Source: Candidatus Babelota bacterium
GTDB lineage: Bacteria; Babelota; Babeliae; Babelales; JABDEC01
Reading direction: 5' to 3'
Assembly (NCBI GenBank): GCA_013286795.1
Contig: JABDFA010000005.1
Location: 10,911-74,910 of the forward strand
Length of the DNA: 64,000 nucleotides
Shown here: one piece after another, positions 15,641 through 61,266 of the stretch
How positions within the stretch are numbered: position 1 is the first letter of the stretch
Layout of the letters: each line of letters opens with the position of its first letter
Notes under the pieces: generated by a model
Databases searched by the model: none
Told to the model about the DNA's origin: nothing
The model's input: only the letters and a program-made list of their open reading frames with translations
Translations under genes and position numbers: made by a program

Positions 15641-15717
15641 TGGCAGGCCAGGAGGGATTCGAACCCCCAACCCGCAGATTTGGAGTCTGCCGCTCTACCA
15701 ATTCGAGCTACTGGCCT
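15641..15717 (-). tRNA. tRNA-Trp (anticodon CCA), CCA encoded
   Basis: Hand fold: AGGCCAG TA GCTC GAATTGGTA GAGC G GCAGA CTCCAAA TCTGC GGGTT GGGGG TTCGAAT CCCTC CTGGCCT G CCA. Confidence 0.9.
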
Positions 15718-15876
15718 CTATTTAGTTTCTTTATGAGGCTGATGCTTACGGCAGCGAGAACAATATTTTTTCATTTTCAAAGACCCTATAGATCTTTTTT
15801 TATTTACAACCTGTGTATAATTTTTTTCTTTACAATCTTCACACATTAAATGTGAAGTTACTCTATTCTTTGCCAT
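15718..15876 (-). CDS. rpmG: 50S ribosomal protein L33
   Basis: Not in the ORF track (52 aa). My translation: MAKNRVTSHLMCEDCKEKNYTQVVNKKRSIGSLKMKKYCSRCRKHQPHKETK. It has the classical L33 CxxC..CxxC and a HKETK end. Confidence 0.88.
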   Translation of the reverse strand: MAKNRVTSHLMCEDCKEKNYTQVVNKKRSIGSLKMKKYCSRCRKHQPHKETK

Positions 15877-15923
15877 AAAAAACTTCCTTGCAGATAAAAC
15901 CGCTCCAGATCCTCATATTAAAC

Positions 15924-16000
15924 TGGAGCCCGCGACCGGATTCGAACCGGTGACCTCTTCCTTACCAAGGAAGTGCTCTAACCTACTGAGCTACGTGGGC
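15924..16000 (-). tRNA. tRNA-Thr (anticodon GGU), CCA encoded
   Basis: Hand fold: GCCCACG TA GCTC AGTAGGTTA GAGC A CTTCC TTGGTAA GGAAG AGGTC ACCGG TTCGAAT CCGGT CGCGGGC T CCA. One A-C mismatch in the acceptor stem. Confidence 0.88.
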
Positions 16001-16066
16001 ACTTAATTCAATGCCTAAGTACCTATTAATAAGATAAAGGAAAAAAAGAAAAATACAACAATAATT

Positions 16067-16142
16067 TGGAGCTGGCGACTGGACTCGAACCAGTGACCTG
16101 CTGATTACAAATCAGCTGCTCTACCAACTGAGCTACGCCAGC
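16067..16142 (-). tRNA. tRNA-Thr (anticodon UGU), CCA encoded
   Basis: Hand fold: GCTGGCG TA GCTC AGTTGGTA GAGC A GCTGA TTTGTAA TCAGC AGGTC ACTGG TTCGAGT CCAGT CGCCAGC T CCA. Confidence 0.9.
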
Positions 16143-16162
16143 ATCGATTCTTAATATTTTTT

Positions 16163-16238
16163 TGGAGCGGGAAACGGGGCTCGAACCCGCAACCTACAGC
16201 TTGGAAGGCTGTCGCTCTACCAATTGAGCTATTCCCGC
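16163..16238 (-). tRNA. tRNA-Gly (anticodon UCC), CCA encoded
   Basis: Hand fold: GCGGGAA TA GCTC AATTGGTA GAGC G ACAGC CTTCCAA GCTGT AGGTT GCGGG TTCGAGC CCCGT TTCCCGC T CCA. Confidence 0.9.
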
Positions 16239-16323
16239 TTTATCAATTTTTTTTATAACCAAACTACCATTTTTCTATTTTTATTTTTAACTCAAAATAA
16301 AAATAGTTTTTTTATAATTTAAA

Positions 16324-16465
16324 TCCTGCCCTACTACGCACTTACTTCGCTAAAGCTACGTAAGTTGCTTCGAAGGGCATACTTCGCACTTAAGTTACTG
16401 TATTAATAAAATCAATTCCTTAAAGAAGTATGGCTCGCCATACGAAGCTACGAAGTAGCGAAGTA
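16324..16465. repeat. GC-rich imperfect palindromic element between tRNA-Gly and tRNA-Tyr
   Basis: Two arms, (cacttacttcgctaaagctacgtaagttgcttcgaagggcatacttcg) and (gaagtatggctcgccatacgaagctacgaagtagcgaagtat), are roughly reverse-complementary around an AT-rich loop. Shares CGAAGG/TACGAAGC words with the other GC-rich repeats. Confidence 0.65.
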
Positions 16466-16550
16466 TGGTGGTGAGGGTAGGATTCGAACCTACGAAGGCT
16501 GAGCCAACGGATTTACAGTCCGTCCCCTTTGGCCGCTCGGGAACCTCACC
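16466..16550 (-). tRNA. tRNA-Tyr (anticodon GUA), long variable arm, CCA encoded
   Basis: Hand fold: GGTGAGG TT CCCG AGCGGCCAAA GGGG ACGGA CTGTAAA TCCGT, long variable arm, GTAGG TTCGAAT CCTAC CCTCACC A CCA. Confidence 0.9.
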
Positions 16551-20298: not shown

Positions 20299-21651
20299 TT
20301 AAACATTGCCCTCAGAAAAAACTTTAAGTAGCTCATAAACATTGCTGAAGTGATTAACTTCGTATGAGCCTTTTTCTATTTTCTGGCCGCGGGAAATAAA
20401 AATCTGCTCAATGCCAAATTTTTGTGCCTCACTAATGTGCATAGAAATATTATTTGTAGGTTTAATCTGGCCGGTTAAGCTGATCTCGCCAAGTGAGATT
20501 GATTTAGCTGGTAAAGCTAATTGAAAGAAGCTGGAAAGTAATGCAAGAGCTATGCCAAGATCAGCAGAACTTTCTTTGACCATAAACCCGCCGCTAACTT
20601 TAAAGAAAATATCATGTGAGCTAAATTTTACCTGAAGATATTTTTCTAAAATTGCAGAAATTAAAATAACACGTTTATGATCAACACCTGTGATAACTCG
20701 TTGTGGTACACCAAACTTTGATGGTATTATAAGAGCCTGGAGTTCTAATAATAAAGGTCGGGAACCTTCAAAACAACTAATTAAAACTGATCCAGGAGCA
20801 TACGAAACATTCTGTAAAAGCTGTTGGTTAATATTTGGAACCTCTCTTAAACCTTCAGAACAAATTTCAAAAAAACCGATTTCATTAACAGAACCAAATC
20901 TGTTTTTTACTGAACGTAATACACGAATATTAAGCTGATCTTCACCTTGAAGATAAAAAACAGCATCAACCATATGCTCTAAAGTTTTTGGTCCAGCAAT
21001 CTGACCCTCTTTGGTTATATGTCCGGTTACAATTACAGTAATATTATTTTCTTTTGCAAGTCGCATTAGCCTAAAACCAGCTTCACGAAGTTGCCCAACG
21101 GTACCAGACATAATTTGTTGTGTTTGAGTAAAATAACAGTTTTGTATAGAATCTATAATAACTATTTCAGGCTTTTGTGTTTCACATGTAGCAATTATAG
21201 CATCGAGATTACCTTCATCAGAAAATAACATTTGGCTTTCTTCATGAACTATTCTGTCAAAACGATGTTTGACTTGCGCTATAGATTCCTCTGAAGAAAA
21301 ATAAAAAAGTTTTTTGGATTTCGCTAAATCATGGGCAATTTGTAAAAGCAAAGTAGATTTACCTATTCCTGAATCACCGGTCAAAATTAAAAAAGATCCA
21401 GGAATTAATCCGCCACCTAAAACTCTATCCCATTCATTAAAACTTGAAGATATGCGTTTTTTTTCAAATGAAACAGCTTGAGAAAGTTGCACCATCTGCA
21501 AATTCCCAGCACCCTTAGATGCAGCTACAAATTTATGCTCTTCTTGCTGCACGAATGTATTCCACTCATTACATTCAGGACAACAACCTAACCACTTTGG
21601 AGTCTTATAACCACAACCGGAACAATCGAAAAATGTTTTAATTTTGCTCAT
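20299..21651 (-). CDS. radA: DNA repair protein RadA/Sms
   Basis: 450 aa. N-terminal zinc finger CSGCGYKTPKWLGCCPECNEWNTF, Walker A GDSGIGKSTLLLQ, KNRFG motif, Lon-like C-terminal domain. Confidence 0.96.
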   Translation of the reverse strand: MSKIKTFFDCSGCGYKTPKWLGCCPECNEWNTFVQQEEHKFVAASKGAGNLQMVQLSQAVSFEKKRISSSFNEWDRVLGGGLIPGSFLILTGDSGIGKSTLLLQIAHDLAKSKKLFYFSSEESIAQVKHRFDRIVHEESQMLFSDEGNLDAIIATCETQKPEIVIIDSIQNCYFTQTQQIMSGTVGQLREAGFRLMRLAKENNITVIVTGHITKEGQIAGPKTLEHMVDAVFYLQGEDQLNIRVLRSVKNRFGSVNEIGFFEICSEGLREVPNINQQLLQNVSYAPGSVLISCFEGSRPLLLELQALIIPSKFGVPQRVITGVDHKRVILISAILEKYLQVKFSSHDIFFKVSGGFMVKESSADLGIALALLSSFFQLALPAKSISLGEISLTGQIKPTNNISMHISEAQKFGIEQIFISRGQKIEKGSYEVNHFSNVYELLKVFSEGNV

Positions 21652-21682
21652 AGCAATACTTTTATTTTAAGAATAATAACTT

Positions 21683-21748
21683 ATCCTTCGACTTCGTTCC
21701 TCATTGTGCTTAAGCACAATTCGTCACTTCCCTCAGGATGACTGGAGA
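21683..21748 (+). repeat. GC-rich palindromic repeat, family A, copy 1
   Basis: atccttcgacttcgttcc..cattgtgcttaagcacaatt..cacttccctcaggatgactggaga. About 4 mismatches to the copy at 22185-22250. Confidence 0.8.
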
Positions 21749-21823
21749 AAACAAGCATTTCTCTAAACTTAAGTAAATAAAAACAAAATTTATATTTATC
21801 AATCTAAATAGTAAAATTAGGAA

Positions 21824-22174
21824 TCAACCAGAACCATCCACCATCCGGTCATCCTGAGGGAAGCGCGAAGCGCGAAGTCGAAGGATCTCTTTTTCTTTCT
21901 TTGTAACAAATCCTTCCAATGCTTCCCATCCATGATTTATTAAAACTTCTTTTTTATCTCTTGTCCAACCTTTTAACTTGTGCTCTGCATTAAATGCTTC
22001 TGTTCTAGTTGAAAATTCTTCAAGAAATACTAGCTTCACTGGCAAAAGCGCAGCAGTGTATTCACTAGCCTTCCCTTCAGCATGCTCACATAATCTTTTT
22101 TCTATATTATCAGTGTGACCGATGTAATAAGCGCCGTTTCTGCATCTTAAAATATAAACATAAAATGGTTTCAT
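21824..22174 (-). CDS. stand-alone GIY-YIG (URI) domain nuclease
   Basis: Start at MKPFYVYILRC (cat at 22172-22174). Motifs FYVYIL, YYIGHT, RLCEH, AEHKLKGW. The last ~20 codons (LRLRASRFPQDDRMVDGSG) come from an inverted repeat copy. The track's N-terminal extension lies in repeat copy 2. Confidence 0.8.
   Translation of the reverse strand: MKPFYVYILRCRNGAYYIGHTDNIEKRLCEHAEGKASEYTAALLPVKLVFLEEFSTRTEAFNAEHKLKGWTRDKKEVLINHGWEALEGFVTKKEKEILRLRASRFPQDDRMVDGSG
21845..21886 (-). repeat. GC-rich palindromic repeat, family A, short inverted copy
   Basis: ccggtcatcctgagggaagcgcgaagcgcgaagtcgaaggat is the reverse complement of the family A termini, with a shortened centre. Confidence 0.75.
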
Positions 22175-22184
22175 TTTAAAAATA

Positions 22185-22250
22185 ATCCTTCGACTTCGTT
22201 CCGAATTGTGCTTAAGCACAATTCTCCACTTCCCTCAGGATGACTGGAGA
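22185..22250 (+). repeat. GC-rich palindromic repeat, family A, copy 2
   Basis: atccttcgacttcgttccgaattgtgcttaagcacaattctccacttccctcaggatgactggaga. The centre gaattgtgcttaagcacaattc is a perfect 22-nt palindrome. Confidence 0.8.
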
Positions 22251-22340
22251 AGACAAAGTCACCTAAAAAAAACAAAACAATTATTCAATTATCTTAGAAT
22301 GATTGAAAGAGGTAAATTCTTTCAAAATTTAGCCTAGGAT

Positions 22341-22934
22341 TTAGTTTACACTTTTGTCTATAATATAACAATTACGGCAGCGGGCCTGGTAGCACTCTTG
22401 CGCGCCAATCATAATTAATGGGTCGTTATATTTAGCAGGCATATTATTAACAATTCGTTGAGTAAATTGTGCATCATTTCCACATTCAACGCAGACAGCT
22501 TTAAGCTTTGTAACATTATCAGCAAAGGCAAGTAAAGCGGGCATACAACCAAAAGGTGAGCCACGAAAATCTAAATCTAATCCTGCAGCTATAACACGTT
22601 TGCCGCTATCAACAAGCTTGAAAATAACTTCAACGATATCATTAGAAAAAAATTGCACCTCATCAATACCAATAATATCTGTCTTATCGTGCACTAAATC
22701 TAAAATAATTTTGGGATCGCCAACTTCAAATGCTTGAATTTTACTACCACTATGGGACATTACATACTCAATAGCTCGAACTCTATCCAAAGAATGTTTA
22801 AATGCCAATACATTTAATTTTGCTATTTCAGCTCTTTTTAATCTGCGAATAAGCTCCTCTGTTTTGCCTGAAAACATTGAACCACAAACTACTTCTAATA
22901 CTCCTTTTGTTTTTTCTGTTTTTTTAACGAACAT
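22341..22934 (-). CDS. tdk: thymidine kinase
   Basis: 197 aa. P-loop GSMFSGKTEELIRR, DEVQFF, C-terminal zinc motif CVECG..CRNCY. Confidence 0.95.
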   Translation of the reverse strand: MFVKKTEKTKGVLEVVCGSMFSGKTEELIRRLKRAEIAKLNVLAFKHSLDRVRAIEYVMSHSGSKIQAFEVGDPKIILDLVHDKTDIIGIDEVQFFSNDIVEVIFKLVDSGKRVIAAGLDLDFRGSPFGCMPALLAFADNVTKLKAVCVECGNDAQFTQRIVNNMPAKYNDPLIMIGAQECYQARCRNCYIIDKSVN

Positions 22935-23091: not shown

Positions 23092-24405
23092 ATGCAAGAG
23101 TGTATTATAGTAGAACAAACTCATAACATTGAAGGCGAAATTAGTTTATCTGGAGCAAAAAATGCAGTACTAGTAATCATGGCATCAACATTGCTGAACT
23201 CTGGAAAAAATACACTCAGAAACGTTCCTAATTCAGAAGATGTACTTTGTATGATAAACCTTCTTGAAGAATTAGGCGCACAAGTAAATTTTGATCAATT
23301 AAATAAAGTTTTAGAAATAGATACTTCAACTGTAATAAACTACAAAGTCAGCCCTAATATAATGAAAAAAATGAGGGCTTCTGTTTTAGTAATGGGACCG
23401 TTATTAGCACGGTTTTCAAAAACAGAAATTTCTTTACCCGGTGGTTGCGTATTAGGCAAAAGACCAATAAATTATCATCTTGATAATTTTAAAAAAGTTG
23501 GTGTCACTTTTGAACAATCAGGGGATTATCTTGTTGGATCTACCAATAAACTTTTAGCAAAACGTTTAGCTCTTGAATATCCCAGTGTAGGTGCAACAGA
23601 AAATCTAATGATGTCTGCAGTTCTAACTCAGGGCAAGACTACAATTGTTAACGCTGCTTTAGAACCGGAAGTATTAGATTTAATTGAAGTTCTAAAAAGG
23701 ATGGGTGCAAAAATTTCTATACTTCCACCAGCAACTATAGAAATTGAAGGTGTAAATACTCTTAATGCAGTAGAACATTCAATCTTATGTGACAGGCTTG
23801 AAGCAGGCTCTTTACTCTTGGCTGCTGCAATTACGGGTGGAAATATTCATATTCCCAATGCTTCAGCTAATTTGCTTGATGTATTTCTAATGAAACTAGA
23901 AGAAATGGGCCACTCTATTTTAATTGGACAAAATGGACAATCTATAAGATTAATGGCTTGTAAATCACCAAAAGCTGTTTCATTTAAAACTGCTCCATAT
24001 CCCGGATTTCCAACGGACCTGCAAGCTCCTATGTTAGTCGCTCAAACTTTAGCTGAAGGAGTAAGTGAAATTGAAGAAACTGTTTTTGAAAACAGATTAA
24101 TTCATATATTTGAATTACAAAAAATGGGTGCCAAAATTATTCTTGAAAACAACAATAAAGCTATTATCACCGGTGTAAAAGAATTAGTTGGAACAGAAGT
24201 TGTTGCTAGTGATATTAGAGCATCTTGCGCTCTTGTGTTAGCCGGTCTTGCTGCTAATGGCAAAACTATTGTTAAAGGTGTTCATCACTTTAAACGTGGC
24301 TATGATGCATTGGACCAAAAACTAAGATCTCTAGGCGCTCAAATTAAAATTGAAAAACAAGATATTTTACAAGATATCCCTAAAGAAAAAACTTTGGAAA
24401 TCTAA
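23092..24405 (+). CDS. murA: UDP-N-acetylglucosamine 1-carboxyvinyltransferase
   Basis: 437 aa. ISLSGAKNAVLVIMAS, active-site loop LPGGCVLGKRPINYHL, C-terminus HHFKRGYDALDQKLRSLGA. Confidence 0.96.
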   Translation: MQECIIVEQTHNIEGEISLSGAKNAVLVIMASTLLNSGKNTLRNVPNSEDVLCMINLLEELGAQVNFDQLNKVLEIDTSTVINYKVSPNIMKKMRASVLVMGPLLARFSKTEISLPGGCVLGKRPINYHLDNFKKVGVTFEQSGDYLVGSTNKLLAKRLALEYPSVGATENLMMSAVLTQGKTTIVNAALEPEVLDLIEVLKRMGAKISILPPATIEIEGVNTLNAVEHSILCDRLEAGSLLLAAAITGGNIHIPNASANLLDVFLMKLEEMGHSILIGQNGQSIRLMACKSPKAVSFKTAPYPGFPTDLQAPMLVAQTLAEGVSEIEETVFENRLIHIFELQKMGAKIILENNNKAIITGVKELVGTEVVASDIRASCALVLAGLAANGKTIVKGVHHFKRGYDALDQKLRSLGAQIKIEKQDILQDIPKEKTLEI

Positions 24406-24423
24406 AAGATCTCTTATGAACAC

Positions 24424-24558
24424 CCATTCGTATCTGGAGTTTATCCTATGAAATCGAAGGAACAAGCTTCCGACTTCGCTAAGGCTTCGCCGGACAGGCA
24501 GGACGAACGGGTGCAGGAATAAAACGCGCTCGTGGTGAGCCTGTCGAACCATACGAGC
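24424..24558 (+). repeat. GC-rich palindromic repeat, family B (long variant with internal insertion)
   Basis: ccattcgtatc...caggacgaacgg..aggaataaa..cgctcgtggtgagcctgtcgaaccatacgagc. Matches the reverse complement of 55359-55445 apart from a ~65-nt internal insert. Confidence 0.75.
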
Positions 24559-55338: not shown

Positions 55339-55358
55339 AAATCAAATTATTTTAAATT

Positions 55359-55445
55359 CGCTCGTATGGTTCGACAAGCTCACCACGAGCGGGGATCTTT
55401 ATTTCCTAGTCCGTTCGTCCTGAGCTTGTCGAAGGATACGAATGG
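55359..55445 (-). repeat. GC-rich palindromic repeat, family B (short variant)
   Basis: cgctcgtatggttcgacaagctca..tgagcttgtcgaaggatacgaatgg. The 13-nt arms ttcgacaagctca/tgagcttgtcgaa are perfectly complementary. Confidence 0.8.
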
Positions 55446-60613: not shown

Positions 60614-61212
60614 TGAGCTTTCTCTTCTTTTGGTCTTACATAAATAAAACTAACTAATGTTTCTTGCTGTTCAGTTTGCATCCCTTGCCAAGAACCTGTT
60701 GATTTTACCAAAAAAACATTTTCAAATTTTTTTGCAACTTCAGATTTTTCAGGAACATCTAAATATTTAGAAACTATCTTGGTTTTAGGATCTGAAATAT
60801 CTTGAGTAAAAGTTTTATCTTTTTGTAACTTTTCAAAATCCTGAGGATTATAATAAATATTTTTTATATAAAAAATTCTAGATAAAATTGCATGTTCAAG
60901 AGTAACATTTCTAAACGCTCCAAATTGCAGAGAAAAAAGCGCAGTGATCATCATGCCTATTATTGCAATTGTTAATGCAACTTCTATAAACGAAAAGCCA
61001 CTACTACCTAAGACATATTTATTTTTAAAGCTATTGATCTCTCTCCGTTCGCCCTGAGCGAGGTCTGAGCGATCCTGAATGAGCGTAGCGAAATGAGGGA
61101 GAGACGAAGACCGAGTCGAACGGGTTATATTTCTTTTAAATTTATTTTTTAAATTTTTTAAAACTCTTTTGAAAAAATAATTTTTTAGACTAAGTAAATT
61201 TTTTTTACCCAT
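60610..61212 (-). CDS. GspI-like minor pseudopilin with an abnormally long, repeat-containing leader
   Basis: Prepilin site GSSG/FSFIEVALTIAIIGMM lies 72 codons after the ATG at 61212 (AAGGAG Shine-Dalgarno 4 nt upstream). No ATG/GTG/TTG lies in frame closer to the cleavage site. Confidence 0.55.
   Translation of the reverse strand: MGKKNLLSLKNYFFKRVLKNLKNKFKRNITRSTRSSSLPHFATLIQDRSDLAQGERREINSFKNKYVLGSSGFSFIEVALTIAIIGMMITALFSLQFGAFRNVTLEHAILSRIFYIKNIYYNPQDFEKLQKDKTFTQDISDPKTKIVSKYLDVPEKSEVAKKFENVFLVKSTGSWQGMQTEQQETLVSFIYVRPKEEKAQ
61045..61123 (-). repeat. GC-rich palindromic repeat, family C, inside the pseudopilin leader
   Basis: ccgttcgccctgagcgaggtctgagcg...gaccgagtcgaacgg. Termini ccgttcg/cgaacgg are inverted. 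In frame, it encodes TRSTRSSSLPHFATLIQDRSDLAQGER. Confidence 0.75.
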
Positions 61213-61266
61213 TCGACTCCTTCTTCGACTCACTACGTTCGCTCAGAAGTCGCTCAGGGCGAACGG
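61209..61266 (+). repeat. GC-rich palindromic repeat, family C/B-like, at the pseudopilin 5' end
   Basis: ccattcgactccttcttcgactcactacgttcgctcagaagtcgctcagggcgaacgg. Inverted relative to 61045-61123. Shares ccattcg..ccttc..ttcgac..gctcaggRcgaacgg with family B. Confidence 0.75.

Follow-up and report, generated by a model that had tools for sequence, protein, structure and literature searches.

Does a small nuclease gene that sits between copies of a GC-rich hairpin repeat belong together with these repeats, and if so, what kind of unit do they form? The question is raised by a locus in a stretch of 64,000 nucleotides from a Candidatus Babelota bacterium (assembly GCA_013286795.1, contig JABDFA010000005.1, positions 10,911 to 74,910), the whole of which we call the window. 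By analogy with a published nuclease system we consider it probable that the locus is a compact nuclease-plus-target module, that is, a GIY-YIG endonuclease gene with its own hairpin repeat on either side, in inverted copies. The parts of the locus are as follows:

22174 to 21824, minus strand: GIY-YIG nuclease gene, 116 amino acids (open reading frame (ORF) call and Pfam)
22180..22256 (core 22185-22247), minus strand: upstream repeat copy F1 (self-comparison and repeat patterns)
22203..22222: inner 20-nt perfect palindrome AATTGTGCTTAAGCACAATT in F1, between its TGAG and TCGAA halves
21845..21886, plus strand: 3' repeat copy R, inverted relative to F1 (self-comparison and repeat patterns)
21678..21754, minus strand: extra downstream repeat copy F2, in direct orientation to F1 (self-comparison and repeat patterns)

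In the sense of the gene, F1 reads 5'-CCAGTCATCC-TGAG-[GGAAG..inner hairpin..CGAAG]-TCGAA-GGAT and ends 10 nt before the ATG, while R reads CCGGTCATCC-TGAG-GGAAG-CGCGAAGCGCG-AAG-TCGAA-GGAT. F2 lies ~100 nt past R, 26 nt ahead of the radA start codon, and forms a tag-to-tag doublet with R. As members of the repeat family with long inserts, the window copies follow the scheme CC(A/G)GTC-ATCC-TGAG-[insert]-TCGAA-GGAT. Much of this layout had been proposed in an earlier sequence-only reading. The two same-orientation copies of 66 nt that it described as differing at about 4 positions (22185-22250 and 21683-21748) have exactly 4 mismatches, and over 77 nt F1 and F2 are 91% identical. The shorter inverted copy that was thought to supply the last ~20 codons of the ORF is R, which covers codons ~97-110 within them. 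A central hairpin had been assigned to each long copy: in F1 it is a perfect palindrome, and F2 carries the same nested palindrome at 21703-21722 with one side shorter by one base. The equivalent of the inner hairpin in R is CGCGAAGCGCG at 21864-21874. The repeats were also said to be far richer in GC than their surroundings, and indeed the long copies have 47% and the short copy 62% GC, compared to 31% for the window and 25% for the adjacent spacers. The two terminal motifs are confined to three sites in the 64 kb, where chance would give 0.1-0.2 each and none of 100 shuffles reached 3. Since the independent Logan assembly SRR8433578 (L100) is identical base for base over tdk, the upstream repeat and the gene start, the layout is not an assembly artefact.

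Gene and repeat do go together, in a set orientation and across the whole family. When one genome per species was scanned, 407 loci with relatives bearing YY[IV]GHTD[ND] came up, and the best 80 of the 407 were analysed, 844 kb in total, spanning Babeliales, Sphingomonadales, Chloroflexota, Myxococcota, Burkholderiales and others. In nearly all of them the repeat upstream of the gene has the form 5'-CCGYTC-RYSS-TGAG(C)...(G)TCGAA-SSRY, and its reverse complement stands at the 3' end of the gene. With the final repeat patterns, which replaced stricter ones blind to G-T pairs and TTGAA variants, we found 155 matches to the full repeat versus 2 in shuffles; 38 of these are forward copies that end upstream of the start by 200 nt or less, while another 46 are reverse copies beginning 200-400 nt past it. 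The pattern for the tag half matched upstream of the gene in 60 of the 80 loci, at its 3' end in 70 and on both sides in 54, so that the flanking repeats, which the sequence-only reading had asked for in relatives, are present in most of them. Near the gene, in 2.9% of the search space, lie 156 of all 377 tag-half matches (41%), which is a ~14-fold enrichment (binomial p ~1e-134). At 35 of the 54 loci with both copies, these two have an identical 4-nt stem; permutations gave a mean of 8.4 such loci and a maximum of 19. Because of these counts a forward copy, the gene and a reverse copy form the canonical unit, which in the window runs from 22256 to 21845. The analogy to REP elements and their RAYT transposases that had been drawn for the window is an apt one. 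The idea that the long direct copies form the outer frame has to be given up in favour of F1 and the inverted R; F2 is an addition to the canonical F1-gene-R unit.

The repeat itself forms a hairpin that is under selection, and its tag is oriented. It consists of a 5' tag CCGYTC (CCRGTC in the window), a short covarying outer stem, a split loop TGAG(C)...(G)TCGAA and often a variable nested hairpin; the conserved split 13-nt loop is TGAGCYTGTCGAA and the short consensus of the repeat is CCGCTCATCCTGAGCTTGTCGAAGGATGAGCGG. For the pairing test 170 copies were picked by the 13-nt loop alone. In these, the four pairs beside the loop are paired in 90% of cases versus 60% when shuffled and 21-44% when slid, and there are 185 double-change cells versus 62. 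The 5' flank CCGYTC is kept in 132 of the 170 copies, and the 3' outer arm is not conserved. In about a third of the full-repeat matches (52 of 155) TGAG and TCGAA are set apart by an insert that forms a hairpin of its own (median z -2.4), and the nested hairpins of the window, AATTGTGC/GCACAATT and CGCG/CGCG, are of this type. An Rfam scan returned tRNAs alone at threshold and no family for the repeat. Sub-threshold Rfam matches to the microRNA families MIR7533, mir-4433 and mir-149 appear to reflect just long inverted repeats and were rejected; one match to the plant family MIR7533 (L014:5901-6373, 76 bits, gathering 230) spans a whole repeat-gene-repeat module.

Is this module a discrete unit, and has it been inserted at its present site? 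The ~410-bp module has been duplicated within genomes as a discrete unit. Among the within-genome paralogs L012/L030/L059 and L034/L038, homology runs from outer repeat edge to outer repeat edge, ~410 bp, and in two further genomes the alignment of the copies L051 and L062 is bounded by the same outer edges, the flanks of all these loci being unrelated. The paralogs are 72-87% identical, and a loop variant of L030, TGAGTTTGTCGAA, occurs in both of its repeat copies. There are four loci in the Babeliales chromosome OY969561.1 and three in OY969806.1. In the window the module lies between two genes on the same strand:

22341..22934, minus strand: tdk (thymidine kinase), upstream neighbour (PF00265)
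20299..21651, minus strand: radA, downstream neighbour (ORF and comparison with relatives)

In the relatives L113 and L114, whose tdk is 71% and 75% identical, tdk and radA overlap by 14 nt and the module is absent. The closest relative found, L112 (tdk 92% identical), likewise has neither nuclease gene nor repeat between the two genes; the interval L112:2796-4705 is taken up by two ORFs without assigned function, of 49 and 553 aa. Because the junctions of these relatives are without the module, we regard it as an insertion in the window lineage, and since L112 holds other ORFs there, the tdk-radA junction seemingly accepts insertions repeatedly. The presence or absence of a unit at this junction had been put up for comparison at a size of ~570 bp: the absence in L112, L113 and L114 bears out the comparison, and the size comes down to that of the canonical unit. 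Together with the edges of the paralogs, the junction supports the earlier view of repeat-gene-repeat as a discrete insertable module. As in insertion sequences (IS) and the miniature transposable elements with inverted repeats called MITEs, the unit has terminal inverted repeats and is present or absent at an orthologous site. No target-site duplication was evident at the unit edges in alignment A3.

Other gene neighbourhoods were noted as well. In Sphingomonadales the nuclease clade of the window has the fixed order nrdR - gene - RNA methyltransferase (L082:876-2543; L013, L021, L033, L045, L047 and others at ~6001-7100), and the nuclease ORF often continues into the methyltransferase frame. 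The Firmicute UPF0213 gene (yazA) also lies between RNA methyltransferase genes (trmNF, rsmI; L106, L108, L111).

From its sequence, the nuclease gene is predicted to be catalytically intact. The protein runs MKPFYVYILRC...YYIGHTDNIEKRLCEH...AEHKLKGW, and the 116-aa GIY-YIG ORF called beforehand stood up to the hidden Markov model search that had been suggested for it, matching PF01541 (GIY-YIG) with E 5.5e-18 over residues 4-75 and a score above gathering (Pfam). It has all the residues that mark the GIY-YIG superfamily: both tyrosines, the Arg and the Glu that binds the metal. Among 27 homologs Y7, Y16/Y17, G19, R27 and E64 are invariant and H31 nearly so, and in the Ssn clade of nucleases, which is introduced below, the positions of Y7, Y17, G19, R27, H31 and E64 are likewise invariant. 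The conserved domain comprises residues ~1-95; the last ~20 residues come from the 3' repeat and vary between homologs. In the AlphaFold model a beta-beta-alpha-alpha-beta-alpha core is predicted, with a confidence score (pLDDT) of 86-90 for the core and 50-52 for the last 20 residues. Foldseek with this model placed UPF0213 structures (BH0048/EF2693) at ranks 1-2 and Slx1 at ranks 3-10. It is the single GIY-YIG gene of the window. A sister genome carries a 96%-identical nuclease gene; the best match in the one-genome-per-species scan, whose GTDB representatives do not include the source species, is 63% identical. A metagenome scan with the window protein gave distant relatives only, and an NCBIfam scan sub-threshold matches only. 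Two GIY-YIG homologs (P0024, P0025) contain inserts of 14 to 25 residues that resemble translated repeats (MVRDAAYTAPHHER).

The sequence-only reading had suggested an undescribed kind of system, and in this it was overtaken. SsnA of N. meningitidis, a single-domain GIY-YIG protein of 94 aa, binds the NTS hairpin repeat solely as single-stranded DNA (Chenal et al., Nat Commun 2025, PMC11893778). It cuts single-stranded DNA, and not double-stranded DNA or RNA, a few nucleotides upstream (5') of the repeat, and it does not bind RNA; ssnA genes are flanked by SRM repeats in many bacteria, and three further homologs cut their own repeats (PMC11893778). The authors likened NTS-ssnA-NTS to an insertion sequence and to REP/RAYT, and the Ssn family goes with a best CDD match to cd10448 (GIY-YIG_unchar_3) (PMC11893778). 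The pairing of a minimal GIY-YIG enzyme and its cognate hairpin repeat has therefore been published before. We found no description of the present repeat or nuclease clade in the searchable literature. The window clade appears to be sister to Ssn, and the repeat that goes with it is of a different build; as far as the sequences tell, this clade and its repeat consensus, which fall outside the published Ssn clade and the SRM pattern, would be new.

For comparison the gonococcal ssnA was located by tblastn and then verified on chromosome DNA; its product is 94 aa long, and nine NTS lie within 1 kb of the gene. A first Neisseria match taken for SsnA was rejected as a UPF0213 paralog. The 2.17-Mb N. 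gonorrhoeae chromosomes NZ_CP119142.1 (L081) and NZ_CP119140.1 (L083), which are filed as plasmids, contain a repeat-free UPF0213-type gene as well as ssnA and its nine NTS. Between the window protein and gonococcal SsnA the identity is 36% over 90 aa (pairwise E 8e-11), a similarity missed at E<0.01 by tblastn of the window protein against the gonococcal chromosome; the matches of the window protein to UPF0213 members have E 6e-15 and 3e-13. With hhalign the window clade aligns to Ssn at 99.3% probability (E 2e-20) and to UPF0213 at E 9e-31, and Ssn aligns to UPF0213 at 3e-15. In a neighbour-joining tree (90 columns, 100 bootstraps) the window clade (98), Ssn (100) and UPF0213 (99) are separate, and the window clade lies between the other two. 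The SRM pattern HGTCWYN(0-2)YYVSBRHN(0-5)WNVSBRGN(0-2)RNCYNB proved valid for the NTS consensus and for genuine ssnA loci. Canonical SRM copies occur at SsnA-clade genes of Rhizobium, Azospirillum, Aeromonas and Sphingobium, in the first three in the order forward-gene-reverse. Neither repeat type was found at the six UPF0213 loci examined. In the Sphingomonas loci L053:2619-2700 and L057:535-700, canonical SRM doublets (CGTCACCCC...GGGGTC) lie a few kb from the gene, so that two hairpin-repeat families coexist in Sphingomonas.

Copies of the repeat are also found away from the nuclease gene. Related cores had been noticed elsewhere in the window, and such copies do lie at 24497-24558, 55358-55441 and 61045-61266, in three gene-less arrangements:

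24453..24558: doublet 3' of murA, with a degenerate copy (tag 24497-24510, minus strand) and CGCGCTCGTGGTGAGCCTGTCGAACCATACGAGC (24526-24558, plus strand)
55358..55441: doublet of CCGCTCGTGG-TGAGCTTGTCGAA-CCAT (55358-55392, minus strand) and CCGTTCGTCC-TGAGCTTGTCGAA-GGAT (55411-55441, plus strand)
61045..61266: long-variant pair with outward tags (61045-61114, plus strand; 61209-61266, minus strand) and a 95-nt AT-rich spacer

The pair at 61045-61266 has the layout of the nuclease module minus the gene and is a MITE-like shell. A loosened tag pattern was too unspecific in the AT-rich window for statistics. Beyond the window the exact repeat motif is present in at least 120 IMG/VR contigs. A 61-aa minus-strand ORF at 24367-24552 (MVRQAHHERVLFLHPFVLPVRRSLSEVGS...) is the translated repeat doublet downstream of murA and is likely to be the kind of spurious ORF that is common in databases. 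The tdk gene of relative L114 (4001-4651) holds a solo repeat copy at 4583-4605, and because this copy is in frame the protein has 216 aa rather than 197. Apart from the repeats, the window holds five tRNA genes clustered on the minus strand at 15644-16550 and one more at 4158-4229.

How might a nuclease-plus-target module work? By analogy with SsnA, the protein would most likely recognise the folded repeat in single-stranded DNA (during replication, in transcription bubbles or in incoming DNA) and nick near the tagged 5' side of the repeat, with the scattered gene-less copies as further substrates. From this analogy we infer that the window protein may bind or cut the repeat. It might be possible that the nuclease drives a 'selfish' spread of the repeats, and the gain to the cell or to the element could be this spread, or else control of (incoming) single-stranded DNA or of recombination. 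Several observations weigh against a nuclease with its own target. The window protein falls outside the SRM-carrying SsnA clade (mean identity 32%), and its clade is slightly nearer to UPF0213, whose six loci examined show no repeats. Nothing in the window matches the SRM pattern, nor does anything next to the gene in the 80 loci. The outer stem of the window copies is just 4 bp (ATCC/GGAT); minimum free energy folds of whole copies are weakly better than those of shuffles (z -1.7 to -3.5), and the short copy shows no gain over shuffles (z +0.4 to +0.7). The shared stems round one gene may partly be due to genome-specific repeat subfamilies. Finally, most copies lie far from nuclease genes, with 1 weak nuclease match in 696 kb of repeat-selected contigs, and another enzyme could handle such gene-distant copies.

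The same unit might also be read as a selfish minimal transposon, a ~410-bp IS-like element mobilised by the GIY-YIG protein, with the gene-less copies as non-autonomous derivatives like REPINs or MITEs. This would go well with the sharp boundaries and the several units per genome, with the tdk-radA junction that is polymorphic for the module, with the gene-less shell and its outward tags, with F2 as a 91% copy of F1 that includes the nested palindrome, and with solo copies in frame inside genes; the Ssn authors raised the same idea (PMC11893778). However, there is no sign of recent bursts, because the paralogs are just 72-87% identical, and since the gene occupies one syntenic place across genera of Sphingomonadales, it looks vertically inherited there, like domesticated RAYTs. 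In alignment A3 no target-site duplication was visible, and the chemistry points the same way. GIY-YIG enzymes hydrolyse DNA and are not known to form the covalent intermediate of HUH or serine/tyrosine transposases. Such hydrolysis offers no obvious strand-transfer step, so that any spread of the repeats would depend on repair or recombination by the host. We regard a transposon of this kind as a serious but less probable option.

Could the repeats have nothing to do with the enzyme? One might suppose a housekeeping repair nuclease of the UPF0213/YhbQ type beside which unrelated intergenic repeats accumulate, in keeping with UPF0213 being nearest by profile (E 9e-31) and fold, and with repeat copies at four other places of the window that have no nuclease gene. 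But position and orientation of the repeats are fixed in most of the 80 loci across several phyla, paralog homology stops exactly at the repeat edges, the flanking copies co-vary and the six UPF0213 loci are without such repeats, which makes mere accumulation very unlikely. Action in RNA, as a 5'-leader hairpin plus a 3' terminator or stabiliser and possibly bound by the protein for autoregulation, is unlikely too, if somewhat less so. Ending 10 nt before the ATG, F1 must be part of the leader or of the promoter, R is found where the ORF ends, and the covariation test is blind to DNA versus RNA pairing. Yet copies occur in both orientations to neighbouring genes and also inside coding regions, no Rfam family reached threshold, a promoter/terminator scan that was otherwise uninformative gave 0 terminator-like sites, and SsnA does not bind RNA (PMC11893778). 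Chance similarity or mis-assembly is refuted by the shuffle controls and the identical independent assembly, and its probability is close to nil. A GIY-YIG nuclease gene framed by inverted copies of its own target stays the reading that we favour.

What would follow from it? If the protein cuts the repeat, the Ssn principle of a 95-residue enzyme reading a folded single-stranded site reaches beyond the published clade, and a target of another build is added to it, in which the split loop is conserved, the stem covaries and a nested hairpin is tolerated. As such it might provide new specificities for single-stranded DNA tools, a comparative handle on the reading of DNA shape by a small protein, and an enzyme candidate for a widespread unnamed repeat family that breaks assemblies and spawns spurious ORFs in metagenomes. 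A bolder view, which we offer tentatively and hold to be rather doubtful, is that of a second nuclease/repeat partnership parallel to Ssn/SRM in which the ~410-bp unit propagates itself via a hydrolytic GIY-YIG enzyme and is the source of the GC-rich repeats and spurious ORFs (MVRQAHHER..., ...LSLSKG...) from Dependentiae to Sphingomonadales and Chloroflexota. If this were true, the unit would be among the smallest autonomous mobile elements. Since one lineage has the module at the tdk-radA site and others do not, this site offers a clean natural test of module movement.

Among known systems, Rickettsia palindromic elements are short palindromic repeats of higher GC content which are able to lie in frame within protein-coding genes of intracellular bacteria, and the in-frame repeats in P0024, P0025 and the tdk of L114 resemble them; we know of no dedicated enzyme established for these elements. 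In Slx1 the GIY-YIG core belongs to the same sub-type, and its substrates are DNA branches or stem-loops, but it has a RING/zinc-finger domain, needs Slx4 and is without a cognate repeat. The UPF0213/COG2827 proteins (B. subtilis YazA and E. coli YhbQ type; PDB 1zg2, 1ywl) are closest in sequence and fold and equal the window protein in size and in having one domain, whereas their GKGAKYTR motif is absent from the window clade, the window protein having EGKASEYTAA in its place.

The REP/REPIN-RAYT and IS200/IS605 systems are alike in that one gene is flanked by inverted hairpin repeats, that there are many gene-less copies, often as inverted doublets, that a folded single strand is the likely substrate and that they persist vertically for long in some lineages. 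In contrast to REP/RAYT, the sole domain of the window enzyme is GIY-YIG, a hydrolase and no HUH/Y1 transposase, and the repeat of its clade is without a GTAG or CGTC tag. We know of no transposition chemistry for the GIY-YIG fold. Ssn offers a parallel in enzyme and layout: a single-domain GIY-YIG protein of ~95 aa without a DNA-binding extension, homologous over its full length; oriented hairpin repeats on both sides of the gene, which bear a conserved 5' tag and of which the 3' copy can supply the last codons, as in Aeromonas; many gene-less repeat copies elsewhere in the genome; and enrichment of both systems in host-associated bacteria. The two differ in the build of the repeat, since NTS conserves a palindromic stem, whereas the repeat of the window clade conserves a split loop closed by a short covarying stem.

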